Of a stretch of DNA of 49,279 nt, positions 9,627 to 16,090 are shown piece after piece (within the stretch, counting starts at the first letter, position 1; each line of letters begins with the position of its first letter). Both the position numbers and the translations under genes were made by a program. This DNA is from Desulfurococcales archaeon. Its GTDB lineage: Archaea > Thermoproteota > Thermoprotei_A > Sulfolobales > NBVN01. The stretch covers positions 1 to 49,279 of the forward strand of contig JALVVU010000066.1 of NCBI GenBank assembly GCA_027023255.1. The letters are read 5' to 3'. The notes below the pieces were generated by a model. It had not been told where the DNA came from and did no database searches. It saw nothing but the letters and a program-made list of their open reading frames with translations.

Positions 9627-9711
9627 TTGATCTTATAAAACAGAACTCCCCGACTTATCATTACTTAGTTCCCTACAGCAACTAACCCTACATCCGCTTA
9701 CTATTAGTTAA

Positions 9712-9749
9712 GAAAGATATCATTTATAACGTTAACAACACTATCTTTC
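9712..9749. repeat. Perfect 8-bp inverted repeat GAAAGATA-N22-TATCTTTC, with a TATA-like TTTATAA and AACGTT/GTTAAC palindromes in the spacer
   Basis: Read directly: the arms are at 9712-9719 and 9742-9749. It lies in the 275-nt A/T-rich spacer upstream of the unknown operon. Confidence 0.6.
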
Positions 9750-9901
9750 ATGTGTAAGGTAATGAGCCCCAACAATCAAGTATTCGTTCGACACACTATT
9801 GTGAAAGCATATACGCCTATGCTCAGACTTATGGGCAACTCTGAATTACTATCTCTTAATAGCATGGGTCTCATCTCTTTAAGGGATGGGGTGGTAGCAG
9901 C

Positions 9902-10921
9902 TTGAGTGCAGCTATTGACATGTTTAGCCGCCTATTCTCCCTAATAGATTTGGTGGACTATGACATGATGATAATTCTCCCCCAAAAACATGTAATTAAC
10001 ATAGAAGGAATTACGCGCAACTTACAGAGCCTCGTGATTCTTTTCGGTAATGAGGAGGAGTCCAAGATACAATATGAATCCAAGGATATTTACTTCTTCT
10101 CAACTAAGGGGTTACCGGACACAGCGTTCTGGATAGACTTGATTAAAGGCAATACGCATCACGATACATTAGTGAAGATCAAATCGTTGATCACCAAGGA
10201 TCTTAAGGAAGTAAACATAGTTGCTCGCGAATCATCCCAGGATACGTTACTCGCATACGAATCACTTAATGAGTTACGCCGCGTTAACACTGAGGCTAAG
10301 GTTAAGGTACTTCTCGACGTATCAAGGCTAGACCACGTGCTTAATACCGCCACATTCATGGCACTCGCACTCGACAAGGGCTTACTTGACATCGCTACTA
10401 TAGCCAATGTAAGCAGAATGATAGCTAAGATGCATGCCCTCAATAATTTAGAGAGAGCTCAGGAACTGAGATGGTGCCTAGCGAACCTAATGCGCGCAGC
10501 AGATAGGGCGCTGGAGAACGATGTACACGTTACCGCCGCAGTATGCTACTCAACAAGCGTCCCGGAAATATTTAAGGACTTGCTAGGGTTTATCCGCTTC
10601 TCCAGGTTCGCATCTTGGGGATCGGAGTATCAGTCTAGCGGAATGTACGGAATTATAGAAGGACCCACATACATAGTTAATGGTGACCAACTAAGGGAAT
10701 TATCAAGGAGGGAGGGCTGGGTTCATGAGGGGGTAGAAATTAGGGAGGGTAATAGATTGAGGATAGCGGCTCTCGATGTGAACGCACAGGTACTGCGTGA
10801 GTTCCTGCAGTCAGCACTAACACAGACGTCGGGACGAGAAGGGGATACGATAACTGGTTATGTTGAACTATACAAGGTTGCGGGCCACATTGAATCCTTA
10901 ATTAAGAAGTTGTGGGGATGA
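9902..10921 (+). CDS. Hypothetical protein A of unknown operon (alpha/beta N-domain, helical middle, beta-rich C-terminus)
   Basis: 339-aa ORF with a TTG start; the first ATG is at 9920. No recognised catalytic motif. The next ORF follows after 6 nt. Confidence 0.7.
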   Translation: MSAAIDMFSRLFSLIDLVDYDMMIILPQKHVINIEGITRNLQSLVILFGNEEESKIQYESKDIYFFSTKGLPDTAFWIDLIKGNTHHDTLVKIKSLITKDLKEVNIVARESSQDTLLAYESLNELRRVNTEAKVKVLLDVSRLDHVLNTATFMALALDKGLLDIATIANVSRMIAKMHALNNLERAQELRWCLANLMRAADRALENDVHVTAAVCYSTSVPEIFKDLLGFIRFSRFASWGSEYQSSGMYGIIEGPTYIVNGDQLRELSRREGWVHEGVEIREGNRLRIAALDVNAQVLREFLQSALTQTSGREGDTITGYVELYKVAGHIESLIKKLWG

Positions 10922-10927
10922 TCAGGT

Positions 10928-13108
10928 ATGCCCGTAGAGAAGGATTCCATTATTGTCTCTGCGGTGCTCGCTGCTTGGGTACTACTTTATGGGTATGCGT
11001 TAAGTGTTGTAAGATATCCCTTTAGTATGGCCGTTTGTGGTGCATTCATAATCCTTATCGTGAGCCACGCTATCCTAGTTAGAAGCGATAGGAAGGGCAC
11101 ACCCTTTACTATGGCGTATGCTGCCTACGTTATCCTAACGCTTTTCTCCTTAGCTAAAAATATTCACCCGGCTGTACGGTGGGCATCGGAGTTCCTGGTG
11201 TTCTCTGTCCTTAGTGTAGTGTTCATCGCTTTCTATGACATGCTTGTAAAGGTCAGTAACCGGGACCTCCTACCGCAGTTAGTTCTACTGTACGCCTTAG
11301 CTATATCATTACTAGGGGCTAGTGGTTGGGTGCTAATCTCTTTACTAGGTTTAGCTACGGCGCTTGTCTGCAGTATGAGGTCACTCATAGGTTACCTCAT
11401 GTCGCTTGTCTTCGCTCTATTACCGTTCATTGGGATTCCAGCAGTGGTTTATAATGCTGGGAATCTTCCCCACATAACGCTACCCGGTCTCCACGTCGGG
11501 AGCATGGCCTACGTAACTGCCCTTGTAGTAACGTACGTTGCGTTGGCAATTGCAGGCGGGGTAGGTGGGATCCTCGCAATAACTTTCTGGAAATCCTTAA
11601 CTAGGCCTGAGAAGGTTCCTCGTACGTTAATGAACTCATTCTCAATCGCGATATCTGGCATAGTATTCAACGCATTAGTAATAGTCCTTGTTTACTTACT
11701 TGCACCGTGGCTAAATGGAGTTCTCGTTGTGAAGTCCGTGACACTGACATTAATATCAACATTCACAGCCGCGTTGCTCACAAATACAACCCTATTCCGA
11801 AGGGAAATTAAGAGACTTTTGAAGGACTTTGAGGAACGCAGTGAACACATTCTTCGCGTGCTAGATAATGTTAGAGATGCCGTGAATGCGCTCACATCTG
11901 TAGGTGTGACTAACGAAAAGACAGAGGAACTGCGTAGCCGAACCAATGAAATAATCGTGAATTTAAGGAGGATAAAGGAACGTGTCTCGAGCAATCCCTC
12001 TCCAGACACTTTGAAATCTGCACTCAATGAACTCGACATTATTAAGAAGGACACCGCTGAGGTTGAGAGGGAAATCGTAGACACATTCACGTCCCTCACA
12101 ACTACAGTACAGAGTCTTAAGCCCATCATGGACCCGTACGTAAGGATCCCGGAGGACCTGTGGCTTAAGGCCGTGACTGCCACAAAGGTTGAGGGAATAG
12201 AGGACATCTTGATCAAGGCAAACGCCCTTCGTAGGATCGCGGAAAGGCTCTGTACTTATTTAGAGAAAGCCATAAACCAGAGTCTTGCAGAGTTAGAAAA
12301 AGTTCTAGGCATTAAGGCTATTCCTGAGGAACCCATGAAGTGTAGTAACTGGCGTAACCCCATCTCAGCACTAAAGGGAATAGTGAGGGAGTACACTTTA
12401 ATCCTTGCCAGAAATAAGCACGCGATACAGGAAACCTACAATAAGCTCTTGAAGCTTAAGGAGTTTTTCTTGACTCTTGAGAAGGATGTAAAGGAAAACG
12501 ATCTACAAAACACTAACTTCGGCATGCTCCTGTCAGAAGCTTCAAGTATACTCTCGGAGGTTCCGGACGTCATACCATCAACACATTCCGCAACACGTGT
12601 AATTAAGGACGTTACGGAGAAACTCCGAGAAATCATTGCCAAGTTACCTGAAGCCCTTAAGGCTGACCTGAACTTACTGCTTGAAGGCTCAAGAACAAAT
12701 ACCGCCACAGAGGTGGCGTCAACACTTCATGCACTCAGCGACGTTGGTGAGAGGCTAAATTACCTTTGTGAAACCCTTGAGAACCTAAATAAGGAAGGGA
12801 CTGAGGGAAGCTATGCACAGCTAATAACAGCGTACGATTCGGTATTACCTAAGCTGCTGAAGAAGATCGTGGATAACCTAAAGGAATTAGCGGCAATGCA
12901 TCGGAGAACCGGATTAATACCTGTTGTAATGGAGTACATCGACTACCTACTCATGAAGAAGGGAGGAGTACTGAGTCTGGAGGACTTACCATTCAAGAGA
13001 GACGCTTCAATTCACTTCATCCAGCTCTACGCTATAAGCAGGAAGGACGTTGAGGTGCTGGAAGGAGGGATTAGAATTAGAGGAGGTGCGCAGAATGCCC
13101 AGAAGTAA
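10928..13108 (+). CDS. Hypothetical polytopic membrane protein with long coiled-coil cytoplasmic tail (protein B)
   Basis: About 9-10 hydrophobic segments in residues 1-290 (judged by eye). Roughly 430 aa of K/E/L-rich heptad-like sequence follow, then a short C-terminal globular segment. The antisense ORFs are Ser-rich mirror artefacts. Confidence 0.8.
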   Translation: MPVEKDSIIVSAVLAAWVLLYGYALSVVRYPFSMAVCGAFIILIVSHAILVRSDRKGTPFTMAYAAYVILTLFSLAKNIHPAVRWASEFLVFSVLSVVFIAFYDMLVKVSNRDLLPQLVLLYALAISLLGASGWVLISLLGLATALVCSMRSLIGYLMSLVFALLPFIGIPAVVYNAGNLPHITLPGLHVGSMAYVTALVVTYVALAIAGGVGGILAITFWKSLTRPEKVPRTLMNSFSIAISGIVFNALVIVLVYLLAPWLNGVLVVKSVTLTLISTFTAALLTNTTLFRREIKRLLKDFEERSEHILRVLDNVRDAVNALTSVGVTNEKTEELRSRTNEIIVNLRRIKERVSSNPSPDTLKSALNELDIIKKDTAEVEREIVDTFTSLTTTVQSLKPIMDPYVRIPEDLWLKAVTATKVEGIEDILIKANALRRIAERLCTYLEKAINQSLAELEKVLGIKAIPEEPMKCSNWRNPISALKGIVREYTLILARNKHAIQETYNKLLKLKEFFLTLEKDVKENDLQNTNFGMLLSEASSILSEVPDVIPSTHSATRVIKDVTEKLREIIAKLPEALKADLNLLLEGSRTNTATEVASTLHALSDVGERLNYLCETLENLNKEGTEGSYAQLITAYDSVLPKLLKKIVDNLKELAAMHRRTGLIPVVMEYIDYLLMKKGGVLSLEDLPFKRDASIHFIQLYAISRKDVEVLEGGIRIRGGAQNAQK

Positions 13109-13997
13109 GTGTAGATACTTAGGTGAAGAAACTCCTTGCGATGTAGAAGTAAGTAATAGGGAAATCACCCTAAGAAGCCTTGAAGGGCAGTTAGTGATTG
13201 CCCTAAAACTCGAGGATATTCTCTCTATTGAGCAGAGGGGCAACGAATTCACAATAATGATGAAGAACGGTGATCGAGTATCCATAATGATAACTAGGGA
13301 GTTATTGAAGAGAATCATGTATGTGACCACGTTACTGGAATTAAAGAATTCTGCAAGGAAGGCACTGTTGACGCTAAAAGCGTGCCTGTTAACATTATCA
13401 AGAGTGCTATCCTTACTCGAGGAAATCATGACGAAACTACGTCGGGGCAATATACCTGACTGGGACAGGATCAACGAAGTCAGTGCTGAGCTTAAGAAGG
13501 TAGTATTGAATGAATTACCGGAGAGAACCTCTGGAGTAAGGGCAGGCGAGATAATTGACGTCCTTGAGGAACTCTCCAGAAACGCTAGAACAAAGTACGT
13601 CAATGGTATCAGAATGAATGCTAGGAAACTTGTTGGGATAATGTCTAACGAGTGTATAGTGAAACTATCTCACATATTAGCCTCAGTTAACTTTGCTGTT
13701 GCCGTTGATGTAGTACTGTACATTCATTCTTATTGCTTTGCCAAGAAATTCGACATGCGTTTAGAGGCGAATACCTCCAAAGCTAGGATCGTGGATACCC
13801 TCTCTGAACTCCTCGACAACGTGTTCTGGCTTGGCGGAGGCGAGCCGGAAAAGGTTATGACTGCCGTCCTTAAGTCGCTTGATGACGCTGACGCGGATAA
13901 GAGTGTTGAGGTATTCGTGAATGAGCTGATTAAGGGTATCTGTAGCCACTATTCTATAGCCTGTGAAGGTATAATGAGTCTTAGTGTTGAAGGATGA
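13095..13997 (+). CDS. Hypothetical protein C of unknown operon (about 70-aa beta-rich N-domain plus helical domain)
   Basis: ATG 13095 is preceded by AGGAGGTG (13081-13088) and overlaps the upstream stop by 14 nt. The ORF-track start at 13050 is probably too early. Confidence 0.7.
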   Translation: MPRSKCRYLGEETPCDVEVSNREITLRSLEGQLVIALKLEDILSIEQRGNEFTIMMKNGDRVSIMITRELLKRIMYVTTLLELKNSARKALLTLKACLLTLSRVLSLLEEIMTKLRRGNIPDWDRINEVSAELKKVVLNELPERTSGVRAGEIIDVLEELSRNARTKYVNGIRMNARKLVGIMSNECIVKLSHILASVNFAVAVDVVLYIHSYCFAKKFDMRLEANTSKARIVDTLSELLDNVFWLGGGEPEKVMTAVLKSLDDADADKSVEVFVNELIKGICSHYSIACEGIMSLSVEG

Positions 13998-14946
13998 TCG
14001 CCTCTATTTCCTTCAATATGGTGTCCATATTTCTTAGGGCGACATCTCTGGAGGGATAGTTAAACATTCGTGTTCTCGGGGATTCATTGTAGAAAGGTCT
14101 ATTGCAACCTGGGCAACCACGCACCATGACGCACCTTATGATCTCATCCACTCTCTCTAGATCTAAGTATTCAGGCCTTATGTAGGGTAAACCGTTCTTG
14201 AAGACCGTGAATGACCTCCAGTCTTCACCTTCCATAATGAGGTGCGTCGCTAGTTGCGCGAACCTGTAGTACCTTATGCTTGGGGGGCTACGGGTACCGT
14301 ACATCGGTGTGCCCCTCACGGGTGTGAAGGCGAAGAGGGATACTTCTGATCCGAGATCCCTCACCCTCTCTATGGTCTCAAGTAGCTCTCTCGGTGTCTC
14401 ACCCAACCCCACTATGATGTGTGTAACCACATGGCCTTCCCCGAATACCGTGATGCCATCCTTGATGAATTCCCAGTAACGGTTCCAAGGGTAAGGCTTA
14501 CTGACGGCACGCACTACCCTAGGGGAAGCAGCGTCTAACCCCACGCCTAGATAGTCGGTACCTAGATCCCGTAGCTCCTTAAGGTACCTTAGAGGGACAG
14601 GAGTTATCGATACCGATACGTTAAGGCCATACTCATGGAGGGTCTTAACAACCTCCTTGGTTTCGCTCATGAAATTCTCCTTGATCACGGTCTGCACGCA
14701 GACCCGCTTTATCCCTGCTTTAGCGAGGGACGTGGCTAGGGTCTCTAAGTCGCTTTCAGGCCATGTAATGCGTGAGAGAAGTTCCTTGGATGAGCTAGCA
14801 TCCCTAGATTGAGGGCAGAAGGCGCACGTGCCGTTACACCCATGGTTACTGTCCAGCATGACGTAACCTATGGTTGGTAGCGCATCAACCCTAGCGTTTT
14901 CAAGTCCAGCAACCACTAGCGTTCCGAGGGACGCTCTAATCCTCAC
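13981..14946 (-). CDS. Radical SAM protein, biotin-synthase-related; candidate LipS1/LipS2-type lipoyl synthase subunit
   Basis: CNGTCAFC CxxxCxxC motif (nt 14815-14838), TIM-barrel-like length and a C-terminal CPGC. It is divergent from lplA. Confidence 0.7.
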   Translation of the reverse strand: MRIRASLGTLVVAGLENARVDALPTIGYVMLDSNHGCNGTCAFCPQSRDASSSKELLSRITWPESDLETLATSLAKAGIKRVCVQTVIKENFMSETKEVVKTLHEYGLNVSVSITPVPLRYLKELRDLGTDYLGVGLDAASPRVVRAVSKPYPWNRYWEFIKDGITVFGEGHVVTHIIVGLGETPRELLETIERVRDLGSEVSLFAFTPVRGTPMYGTRSPPSIRYYRFAQLATHLIMEGEDWRSFTVFKNGLPYIRPEYLDLERVDEIIRCVMVRGCPGCNRPFYNESPRTRMFNYPSRDVALRNMDTILKEIEAIILQH

Positions 14947-15763: not shown

Positions 15764-16090
15764 GTGAGTGCTGTGGGGGTCATTGAGGCGTCAGCTAAGA
15801 GGAAGGGCGAGAAAGTCATAATGATCAGATTAGTGCTTAATGAGAAATGCGTTATCGAGTCTGCTGAAGCGCTCGGCGACTTCTTTGCTACGAATCCTGA
15901 GGCTTTAGAGGAAATGCTGCGGAGCTTAGCAGGCGCTAGGGCAGCGAATGTTGAGTGGAGAGAGTTCCTTAAGGATATGGCGAGGGCTTCGGGACTGTAC
16001 GGTGTTTCGAGGGAAACTTTAGATAGCTTAGCCGTAAAGCTTGCTGAGGAGGTAAGCAGGGTTTGCGGGGAAGGAGCTGCGGTAGAGTAG
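15764..16090 (+). CDS. lplB: Lipoate-protein ligase C-terminal-domain protein (LplB-type accessory subunit)
   Basis: 108-aa ORF starting 2 nt after the lplA stop. It resembles the separate LplA C-terminal domain (..ALGDFFATNPEALEE..), as in the Thermoplasma-type split ligase. Confidence 0.7.
   Translation: MSAVGVIEASAKRKGEKVIMIRLVLNEKCVIESAEALGDFFATNPEALEEMLRSLAGARAANVEWREFLKDMARASGLYGVSRETLDSLAVKLAEEVSRVCGEGAAVE

Follow-up and report, generated by a model that had tools for sequence, protein, structure and literature searches.

A chromosomal three-gene operon of Desulfurococcales-type archaea encodes a protein with ten predicted trans-membrane helices and two soluble partners without recognisable relatives

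Three adjacent genes within a 49,279-nt stretch of DNA from a Desulfurococcales archaeon (the whole stretch analysed, in the following called the window) belong to a chromosomal operon that is restricted to a small clade of hyperthermophilic Desulfurococcales-type Thermoproteota. The operon encodes a membrane protein (ORF2) and two soluble proteins (ORF1 and ORF3) and, judged from the sequences, the three most likely assemble into one complex at the cytoplasmic membrane. Its function can be named more tentatively: the reading we favour, held at somewhat less than even confidence, is that of a complex without enzymatic activity, anchored in the membrane and serving as scaffold or adaptor.

The coordinates of all features are listed in Table 1. 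The junctions described in an earlier, sequence-only reading of this DNA can be read directly in the sequence: ORF1 and ORF2 are 6 nt apart, ORF2 and ORF3 overlap by 14 nt, and the Shine-Dalgarno-like motif upstream of the ORF3 ATG lies where it had been placed. Of the three protein lengths given there, those of ORF1 and ORF2 are right, but ORF3 has 300 and not 315 aa: 315 aa is the length of the maximal frame, which opens at TTG 13050 and would overlap ORF2 by 59 nt, and the 14-nt overlap is a property of the 300-aa protein. ATG 13095 is taken as the real start of ORF3 because all distant homologues open with M-x-x-T-[KR]-C, which lines up with MPRSKC. Two observations speak for the TTG start of ORF1: an ATG at the same position in a related locus (L005) and a conserved GGGGTG 7-9 nt upstream. 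The flanking genes are also as first assigned: a gene of the DMRL_synthase family (archaeal ribC-type) upstream and, downstream, the convergent radical-SAM gene beside LplA.

Table 1. Features of the operon and its borders, in positions of the window
Feature	Position	Strand	Description
Promoter block (putative)	9700-9749	+	conserved; TATA-like TTTATAA at 9723-9729, purine-rich BRE-like stretch just 5' of the TATA-like box
Leader ORF (MCKVMSPNN...)	9750-9905	+	51 codons; TGA overlaps the TTG start of ORF1 (TTGA)
GGGGTGG	9888-9894	+	5' of the TTG start of ORF1
ORF1	9902-10921	+	TTG start, 339 aa
GGGGATGATC	10914-10923	+	Shine-Dalgarno-like (putative function); spans the ORF1 stop codon, 4 nt 5' of the ORF2 ATG
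ORF2	10928-13108	+	ATG start, 726 aa, stop codon 13106-13108
ORF2, residues 1-290	10928-11797	+	predicted membrane domain, 10 TM helices, N-in/C-in
ORF2, residues 291-662	11798-12913	+	predicted all-helical cytoplasmic region, ~370 residues
ORF2, residues 663-726	12914-13108	+	winged-helix-like module, alpha-beta-alpha-alpha-beta-beta; most conserved part of the family
AGGAGGTG	13081-13088	+	Shine-Dalgarno-like; within the end of ORF2, 6 nt 5' of the ORF3 ATG
ORF3	13095-13997	+	ATG start, 300 aa
ORF3, N-terminal module (residues ~1-75)		+	beta-rich; C6 and C15 near-invariant
ORF3, remainder		+	helical; invariant W123 within an LRRGxIPxW motif
Radical-SAM gene	13981-14946	minus	convergent; 17-nt overlap with the 3' end of ORF3

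Homologues of ORF2 are rare: when 1.84 billion representatives were searched exhaustively with HMMER, only 18 proteins were returned, nearly all of them 690-734 aa long and matching over their full length. The carriers of the trio are uncultured Desulfurococcales-type Thermoproteota, Zestosphaera among them. Gene-neighbourhood conservation, a check that had been set beforehand, was strongly positive: the trio is present with its gene order kept in all 14 lineages examined, even where ORF2 identity has fallen to 16-25%, and the neighbours of distant ORF2 homologues are truly homologous to ORF1 and ORF3. The tight coupling into one unit, proposed from the window alone, extends to the whole family, as the junctions overlap or have gaps of 0-58 nt in 14/14 lineages (mostly ≤6 nt). 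Each of the three genes has a dN/dS of 0.05-0.24, indicating purifying selection; given this selection and the joint occurrence in 14 lineages, the trio consists of real genes, beyond chance.

The same blocks of GDH-M29-ribC and rSAM-LplA-HAD-POR genes are encountered repeatedly next to the trio throughout the family, and relatives of the trio were not found on the viral contigs scanned. Because of this old housekeeping neighbourhood and the absence from the scanned viral contigs, the trio looks vertically inherited. It would be very surprising if it were what is left of a domesticated virus or mobile element, or a set of functionless genes: the lower GC content relative to the neighbouring DNA, seen in the window and in locus L009, and the absence of known homologues would fit such an origin, but the GC dip is missing in loci L015 and L018, the genomic position is the same over deep divergence, selection is purifying and the called genes at the borders show no integrase, repeats or tRNA, nor is there a match to PHROGs or viral contigs.

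At the sequence level, the three proteins co-evolve and diverge far faster than the products of neighbouring genes. Their identities fall in step (33/37/32, 27/26/28 and 24/23/23%) against 47-94% for the flanks; in one genome, the trio is 32-37% identical and the flanks are 55-94% identical. Such divergence, in which the trio outpaces every neighbour and dS is raised as well, could mean conflict with viruses or symbionts instead of loose structural constraint: the trio, located at the membrane, would then be an interface or defence module for contact with, or resistance to, viruses or DPANN ectosymbionts, caught in an arms race. The carrier genus Zestosphaera is known to host a nanoarchaeal symbiont, and the literature that mentions this genus consists largely of DPANN studies. 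We nevertheless consider this explanation improbable. The dN/dS values show overall no sign of positive selection, the outer loops of ORF2 are short and conserved rather than variable, inheritance is strictly vertical with no defence genes nearby, and the proteins have no significant PADLOC or PHROG match and no nuclease, NTPase or protease. Vertical inheritance amid syntenic housekeeping genes, together with the lack of matches on viral contigs and in PADLOC and PHROGs, speaks against both defence and mobile-element readings.

The three proteins had been called unrecognisable by eye and they are: nothing significant was found in Pfam, NCBIfam, PADLOC, PHROGs or PDB sequence profiles ('no match' refers throughout to Pfam-type HMMs, PDB and BFVD). 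PADLOC and PHROGs gave no match better than E 6e-4, and this on coiled-coil-like sequence only. Regular-expression searches for P-loop, HExxH, CxxxCxxC and DxD likewise found none of these catalytic motifs in any of the three ORFs, and there is no conserved polar residue of a catalytic type. The sequences thus disfavour an enzymatic function of the trio.

ORF2 yielded a confident AlphaFold2 model (pLDDT 86.2), for which Foldseek found no neighbour in PDB or BFVD. The predicted TM helices span residues 5-24, 31-51, 58-75, 86-106, 115-128, 133-145, 150-173, 193-222, 230-258 and 264-290; by hydropathy and K/R positions, about 16 K/R lie inside and 4 outside (our count). A protein with 9-10 TM helices and a coiled-coil tail had been expected: the model has the helices and a large helical cytoplasmic part, but this part consists of helical bundles with a winged-helix-like end and not of one long coiled coil. 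TM10 continues as one unbroken helix up to residue 325, and the bundles follow. Within the helical region C442 and C472 are invariant; its matches in PDB and Pfam are generic coiled coils and helical bundles only, and there is a weak internal repeat signal (hhalign probability 24-29%). A secondary transporter or ion-coupled membrane enzyme was considered for ORF2 and is not supported, as the protein has neither an internal repeat nor a conserved charged intramembrane residue: comparison of TM1-5 with TM6-10 found no duplication (hhalign probability 1.1%), and conservation within the four last TM segments and the loops between them is limited to P166, P181 and H182 (the latter at 75%), none of them a charged intramembrane residue. 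Foldseek identified no neighbour of ORF2 among solved transporters (best E 0.045, TM<0.2); ORF2 could still have a novel transporter fold.

This architecture also bears on whether ORF2 is a sensor or a regulated channel or transporter, with the 10-TM domain sensing or conducting. The helical bundles, like those of long-helix transducers, would relay the signal to the C-terminal module, and the two soluble proteins would act as cytoplasmic regulators or effectors. A polytopic domain with conserved outer-loop motifs, such as the LPH motif with its invariant P181 in an outside loop, and the unbroken helix from TM10 through the stalk into the bundles are what one would expect of such a protein, and the membrane domain could work via its backbone or non-conserved side chains. 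A methyl-accepting chemotaxis protein (2ch7) is among the weak PDB profile matches, but at E 0.27 it is not significant. We regard a sensor or channel as unlikely, if worth keeping in mind: Pfam identified neither a HAMP, MCP or kinase domain nor any other signalling domain in 21 members, the membrane domain lacks conserved charged or polar residues and an internal repeat, and neither an output enzyme nor a DNA-binding partner could be recognised.

The C-terminal module of ORF2 contains an invariant proline (P688) in a (D/E)(L/I)P(F/L) motif. In the model, the order of its elements (H664-677, E681-683, H684-686, H691-704, E708-711, E714-717) fits alpha1-beta1-alpha2-alpha3-beta2-beta3, and by this secondary-structure order the C-terminus appears winged-helix-like; Pfam returned no HTH family match and Foldseek no match at the level of this domain. 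A winged helix could bind DNA, either kept at the membrane or freed by intramembrane proteolysis of the site-2 protease type; ORF1 and ORF3 would then be its co-regulators. The strong conservation of the module would agree with this, and a gene for an M50 protease is divergently adjacent in loci L008 and L013; however, it is not adjacent in the window or in L009, L011, L015, L018 or Zestosphaera (L021). As the putative recognition helix reads as mostly hydrophobic rather than basic, and the module with its lack of an HTH family match is ~370 residues away from the membrane, there is little to recommend a membrane-tethered regulator.

Neither ORF1 nor ORF3 has a TM segment or signal peptide, and by sequence the two are new protein families. 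W77 and N148 are the only invariant residues of the ORF1 family. ORF1 has weak matches over residues 80-198 (PADLOC REase_II, E 6.6e-4; PDB 1kea, E 0.65). A PD-(D/E)xK nuclease and an HhH-GPD glycosylase were rejected, since the deep alignment does not retain the candidate residues D114, E131 and K133. The structure prediction for ORF1 is of low confidence (pLDDT 36.6), and a known fold could be concealed in either ORF1 or ORF3.

Several known systems resemble the trio in parts. Like CdvABC, which uses a winged-helix interaction module, it is a three-gene operon of Thermoproteota that would build a membrane-associated, largely helical assembly, and the C-terminus of ORF2 may be a comparable module. 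Unlike CdvABC, neither the trio nor its distant homologues have a PRC-barrel CdvA, an Snf7/ESCRT-III or a Vps4 AAA+ ATPase (Pfam and NCBIfam; no Walker A): there is no energy-using component, and ORF2 is integral with its 10 TM helices whereas Cdv proteins are peripheral. The passages searched in a 2024 ESCRT census hold nothing that matches the trio. The bacterial protein EzrA resembles ORF2 in that its N-terminus anchors it in the membrane and several hundred residues of non-enzymatic cytoplasmic helical bundles then form a platform; it has, however, one TM helix instead of ten, spectrin-like repeats and FtsZ as partner, and there is no sequence match. To our knowledge, the archaea that carry the trio have no FtsZ. 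In MCP/HAMP transducers, too, a helix runs without a break from the membrane domain into long helical hairpins in the cytoplasm, but Pfam found no MCP or HAMP domain in 21 members (E≤0.01), and Che-type partners are absent nearby.

Two further likenesses come from profile searches. The helical region of ORF2 has weak profile similarity to the SMC-like proteins LmuB of Lamassu (PADLOC, E 6e-4) and JetC of Wadjet (E 1.7). These matches are limited to coiled-coil-like sequence; in contrast to LmuB, JetC and Rad50, ORF2 has no Walker A or ABC ATPase head and its N-terminus is a 10-TM domain, and the trio is set in vertical housekeeping synteny rather than in a defence island. SlaB, the coiled-coil membrane stalk of the S-layer in the related order Sulfolobales (PDB 8QOX chain B), has a helix-plus-TM arrangement and, at E 2.8e-5, is among the lower PDB E-values. 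However, the match covers a TM helix and coiled coil only, and SlaB is extracellular with beta-sandwich domains. The TM and coiled-coil elements of SlaB are in the opposite order to those of ORF2. The similarity is compositional and does not reflect homology.

A membrane-anchored scaffold or machine, for membrane remodelling, cytoskeleton, signalling or defence, was also what the sequence-only reading had suggested; of that reading, the coupled unit, the unrecognisable proteins and the 10-TM ORF2 are borne out, while the length of ORF3 and the single coiled-coil tail had to be given up. In the scaffold model, ORF2 would be both membrane anchor and cytoplasmic platform, and ORF1 and ORF3 would dock onto its helical region and C-terminal module. 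Ribosomes would move from cistron to cistron via the stop/start overlaps and Shine-Dalgarno-like motifs and, we propose, thereby fix the subunit proportions. The cysteine pairs (C442/C472 of ORF2 and C6/C15 of ORF3) may form disulfides that make the fold more stable, or may together bind a metal. As scaffold or adaptor, with no enzyme or pump role, the complex would connect a partner in the cytoplasm with the membrane and with the short, conserved loops outside it. Going one step further, we can imagine, with roughly one chance in three of being right, an undescribed archaeal membrane-associated machine that couples the envelope to the cytoplasm, for example an envelope or cell-shape scaffold or a host-side interface for viruses or nanoarchaeal symbionts.

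The trio is a real cellular component of a hot-spring archaeon, made from three families without known relatives, and ORF2 has a membrane-protein architecture with no counterpart in PDB or BFVD. If the three proteins form a self-contained membrane complex without relatives, this would be a new kind of component for archaeal cell biology. Few studies deal with the Desulfurococcales-type carriers, and little is understood of their envelopes or of how they interact with viruses and nanoarchaeal symbionts; being conserved, presumably stoichiometrically coupled, enzyme-free and fast-evolving, the operon offers defined targets for research on these topics. Its practical value is limited at present, as the carriers are almost all uncultured.

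In the close clade of the source archaeon, a translated leader ORF probably precedes ORF1 as a leaderless first cistron; it was not found in distant lineages. The block at 9700-9749 is nearly invariant across five loci, the coding regions of which have diverged to 56-89%, and the centre of its TATA-like box is ~24 nt upstream of ATG 9750. By the geometry generally known for archaeal promoters, we infer that this block is the promoter: transcription would start ~24 nt downstream of the conserved TATA box and the leader ORF would be translated first. Each of the five close loci has 0 stops in the frame of the leader ORF, whereas the other frames contain 4-7 (probability of an open frame by shuffling 0.01-0.07 per locus), indels are in-frame and its end always coincides with the start of ORF1. 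The dN/dS of the leader ORF is 0.7-1.3, indicating that the frame is constrained and the peptide is not.

The trio comprises genes for a soluble protein (ORF1), a membrane protein with ten transmembrane (TM) helices and a helical cytoplasmic region (ORF2) and a second soluble protein (ORF3). When re-read in the sequence, the three ORFs lie on the same strand, as previously noted, with 6 nt between ORF1 and ORF2 and an overlap of 14 nt that places the ORF3 ATG inside the 3' end of ORF2, preceded by a AGGAGGTG motif; a GGGGATGATC motif lies across the ORF1 stop, 4 nt ahead of the ORF2 ATG. The third protein exists, but the 315 amino acids given to it in the sequence-only reading correspond to the maximal ORF from TTG 13050. 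The real length is 300 amino acids, because the protein is called with this length in the most divergent close relative and the distant homologues are in register: all start with M-x-x-T-[KR]-C, matching MPRSKC. The TTG start of ORF1 is an ATG in L005, one of the trio loci of related genomes, and is preceded by a conserved GGGGTG motif.

Coordinates of the trio and associated features
Feature	Position	Strand	Remark
TTTATAA	9723-9729		within conserved upstream block
Leader ORF	9750-9905		ATG start, 51 codons
ORF1	9902-10921	+	TTG start, 339 aa
ORF1/ORF2 junction	10919-10930		TGA plus two codons between the genes
ORF2	10928-13108	+	ATG start, 726 aa
ORF2 C442, C472	12251-12253, 12341-12343		invariant
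AGGAGGTG	13081-13088		precedes ORF3 ATG
ORF3	13095-13997	+	ATG start, 300 aa
ORF3 C6, C15	13110-13112, 13137-13139		near-invariant, C-x8-C
Radical-SAM gene	13981-14946	-	convergent with ORF3
o108	15764-16090		108 aa, between LplA and HAD hydrolase

In the window ORF1 and ORF2 share one reading frame; in other lineages the frames differ and the overlap is 1-4 nt, which makes it unlikely that readthrough of the stop codon into a fusion protein is a conserved feature. At the other end, the radical-SAM gene shares 17 nt (13981-13997) with the 3' end of ORF3, so that each transcription unit has to end within the other; this convergent layout is also present at L009, L011, L015 and L018.

ORF1, ORF2 and ORF3 are real genes, with dN/dS values of 0.05-0.24 for all three in comparison with four related genomes. 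A large protein collection holds 12-15 clusters per protein, all unnamed and all with at least 56% identity, and an exhaustive HMMER search of 1.84 billion representatives with the ORF2 profile found only 18 proteins. Nearly all of these are full-length matches of 690-734 aa, down to E ~1e-6, indicating that the ORF2 family is rare but deep and has kept a single architecture. Carriers are metagenome-assembled genomes (MAGs) labelled Desulfurococcales, Desulfurococcaceae, Sulfolobales and Zestosphaera sp., almost all of them uncultured, and the trio proteins are annotated as hypothetical in every source. One MAG, GCA_964399035.1, has two divergent copies of the trio (L004 and L005, with ORF2 73% and 57% identical to that of the window); the L004 copy lies on a contig of 3.3 kb, and either the bin is mixed or this is a second copy.

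The trio evolves far faster than its neighbours. In close genomes, flanking genes are 81-100% identical (GDH, M29 peptidase and ribC 94-100%) versus 56-89% for the trio, and the difference persists with distance: 32-37% for the trio versus 55-94% for the flanks at L015 (except 38% for the downstream ORF o108), 26-28% versus 54-90% at L009 and 23-24% versus 47-77% at L018 (o108 36%). The three proteins diverge at a matched pace, as expected of interacting partners. Synonymous divergence is raised too, in comparisons that include L003, L005, L006 and L007: dS of the trio rises from ~0.3-0.55 for the two closest genomes to roughly 2 or higher, close to saturation, relative to L007, L005 and L004, and in general exceeds several-fold the values of the flanking genes (0.07-1.3). 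Weak codon constraint is one possible cause; another is recombination that exchanged older allelic lineages. The likewise fast-diverging o108 is syntenic in relatives and has no Pfam family.

The sequence-only reading had proposed gene-neighbourhood conservation as a check, and the trio indeed recurs together with an ancient housekeeping block: GDH, M29 peptidase and ribC upstream and radical-SAM, LplA, HAD and POR downstream are found in the window and at L015, L009 and L018, and partly at L017 and L011; the segment of HAD, POR and acetyl-CoA synthetase is retained even in Zestosphaera. The GC content of the trio region (0.44-0.46 versus about 0.51-0.54 around it) hinted at recent horizontal transfer, which we reject: the window and L009 show the dip, L015 and L018 do not, and the synteny is ancient. 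We read the dip as fast-evolving genes lying closer to mutational equilibrium. That the trio is the remnant of a mobile element is disfavoured and scarcely credible. A viral origin found no support either: a scan of viral contigs, sensitive to close relatives only, detected no relative of the trio, and the proteins had no match in PHROGs. The fast divergence would fit an interface to a virus or symbiont, or a defence module, but the trio is under purifying selection, is vertically inherited and lacks any defence hallmark, which makes this reading improbable.

ORF2 was modelled by AlphaFold2 with confidence (pLDDT 86.2, pTM 0.55) from an alignment of 31 sequences with 15-90% identity; the ORF1 model, built from a shallow alignment, was discarded (pLDDT 36.6). 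The ORF2 model has ten TM helices, of which TM10 continues unbroken through residue 325, and is all helical between residues 291 and 662. By our own count, about 16 K/R residues lie inside versus 4 outside, which puts the two termini and the large domain on the cytoplasmic side. No 5+5 repeat indicative of an internal TM duplication was found, and helical repeats are weak at best. Foldseek found no structural neighbour of the model in the PDB (best E 0.045, TM<0.2) or in BFVD (best E 0.085).

The best conserved region of ORF2 is its C-terminal module, with a modelled order of elements (alpha-beta-alpha-alpha-beta-beta) typical of winged-helix-type domains. A membrane-tethered winged-helix regulator is nevertheless very unlikely, since adjacency to an M50 site-2-protease gene is limited to two lineages, both of low GC: the gene lies divergently beside the trio at L008 (5681-6862) and L013 (1-900); neither Zestosphaera nor the clade of the window has it there. 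A general partnership of the trio with the protease was rejected accordingly.

Across 16 lineages, the invariant residues of ORF2 are P181, L369, C442, C472 and P688, and its membrane domain has no conserved charged or polar residue. ORF1 has W77 and N148 as its only invariant positions; ORF3 has W123 and L160, plus the near-invariant C6 and C15. Aside from the cysteines, ORF2 and ORF3 have almost no invariant residues. The ORF2 and ORF3 cysteines could form disulfides, or a four-cysteine metal site shared between the subunits.

Regular-expression scans for Walker A, HExxH, CxxC and similar motifs gave no occurrence at a conserved position, and together with the conservation profiles they bear out the earlier remark that the trio has no catalytic signature. 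ORF1 was considered as a nuclease or glycosylase and rejected because the candidate residues are unconserved; paralogy among the three proteins was dismissed on hhalign probabilities of only 0.2-18%. The window proteins have no significant match in Pfam, NCBIfam, PADLOC or PHROGs, and neither has any member of the deep alignments in Pfam. The libraries returned nothing beyond coiled-coil noise below threshold (GIT1_C, ATG17_like, Baculo_PEP_C, LmuB). PDB sequence profiles at three depths gave no match for ORF1 or ORF3 and only generic helical ones for ORF2 (designed coiled coils, viral spike heptad repeats, SMC, cavin, SlaB); the match to the S-layer stalk SlaB (8QOX_B) reflects helix composition only.

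That the three genes always occur together, have coupled junctions and diverge at the same pace argues, indirectly, for a single complex; the proteins show neither conserved catalytic residues nor NTPase motifs or hallmarks of a transporter, which points to a scaffold or adaptor role. We therefore tentatively favour a non-enzymatic scaffold/adaptor complex with ORF2 as membrane anchor: ORF2 would hold a heteromeric complex in the membrane, ORF1 and ORF3 would be its cytoplasmic partners, and translational coupling would set fixed proportions of the three. A sensor or channel complex is rather unlikely, as no signalling domain was detected. Of known systems, CdvABC is likewise a membrane-associated operon of three genes from the same phylum, but the likeness ends there, all three of its defining domains being absent from the trio; EzrA-type scaffolds and MCP-type transducers are alike in gross layout only. 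The retrieved passages of a 2024 ESCRT census contain nothing resembling the trio, and literature searches returned no account of the operon. The proposal of an undescribed system thus stands within the profile, PDB/BFVD and literature searches, while the function assigned to it is our interpretation.

Some 150 nt ahead of ORF1, a block at 9700-9749 with a TATA-like element is almost invariant across five loci. Rfam recognised no known RNA between 9000 and 15000, and a scan for bacterial-type promoters and terminators was uninformative, as expected for an archaeal host. About 24 nt past the TATA centre, an ATG opens a leader ORF, which is open in all five loci (0 stops versus 4-7 in the other frames, with in-frame indels) and has a TGA that overlaps the ORF1 start in each. 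Its dN/dS of 0.7-1.3 indicates that the reading frame is kept and the peptide is not. We read this as a probable leaderless transcript start with a translated leader that would pass ribosomes on to ORF1; in the close clade, the operon may thus have four cistrons. The leader ORF is confined to this clade, and L013 and L020 carry unrelated short ORFs at the same position.
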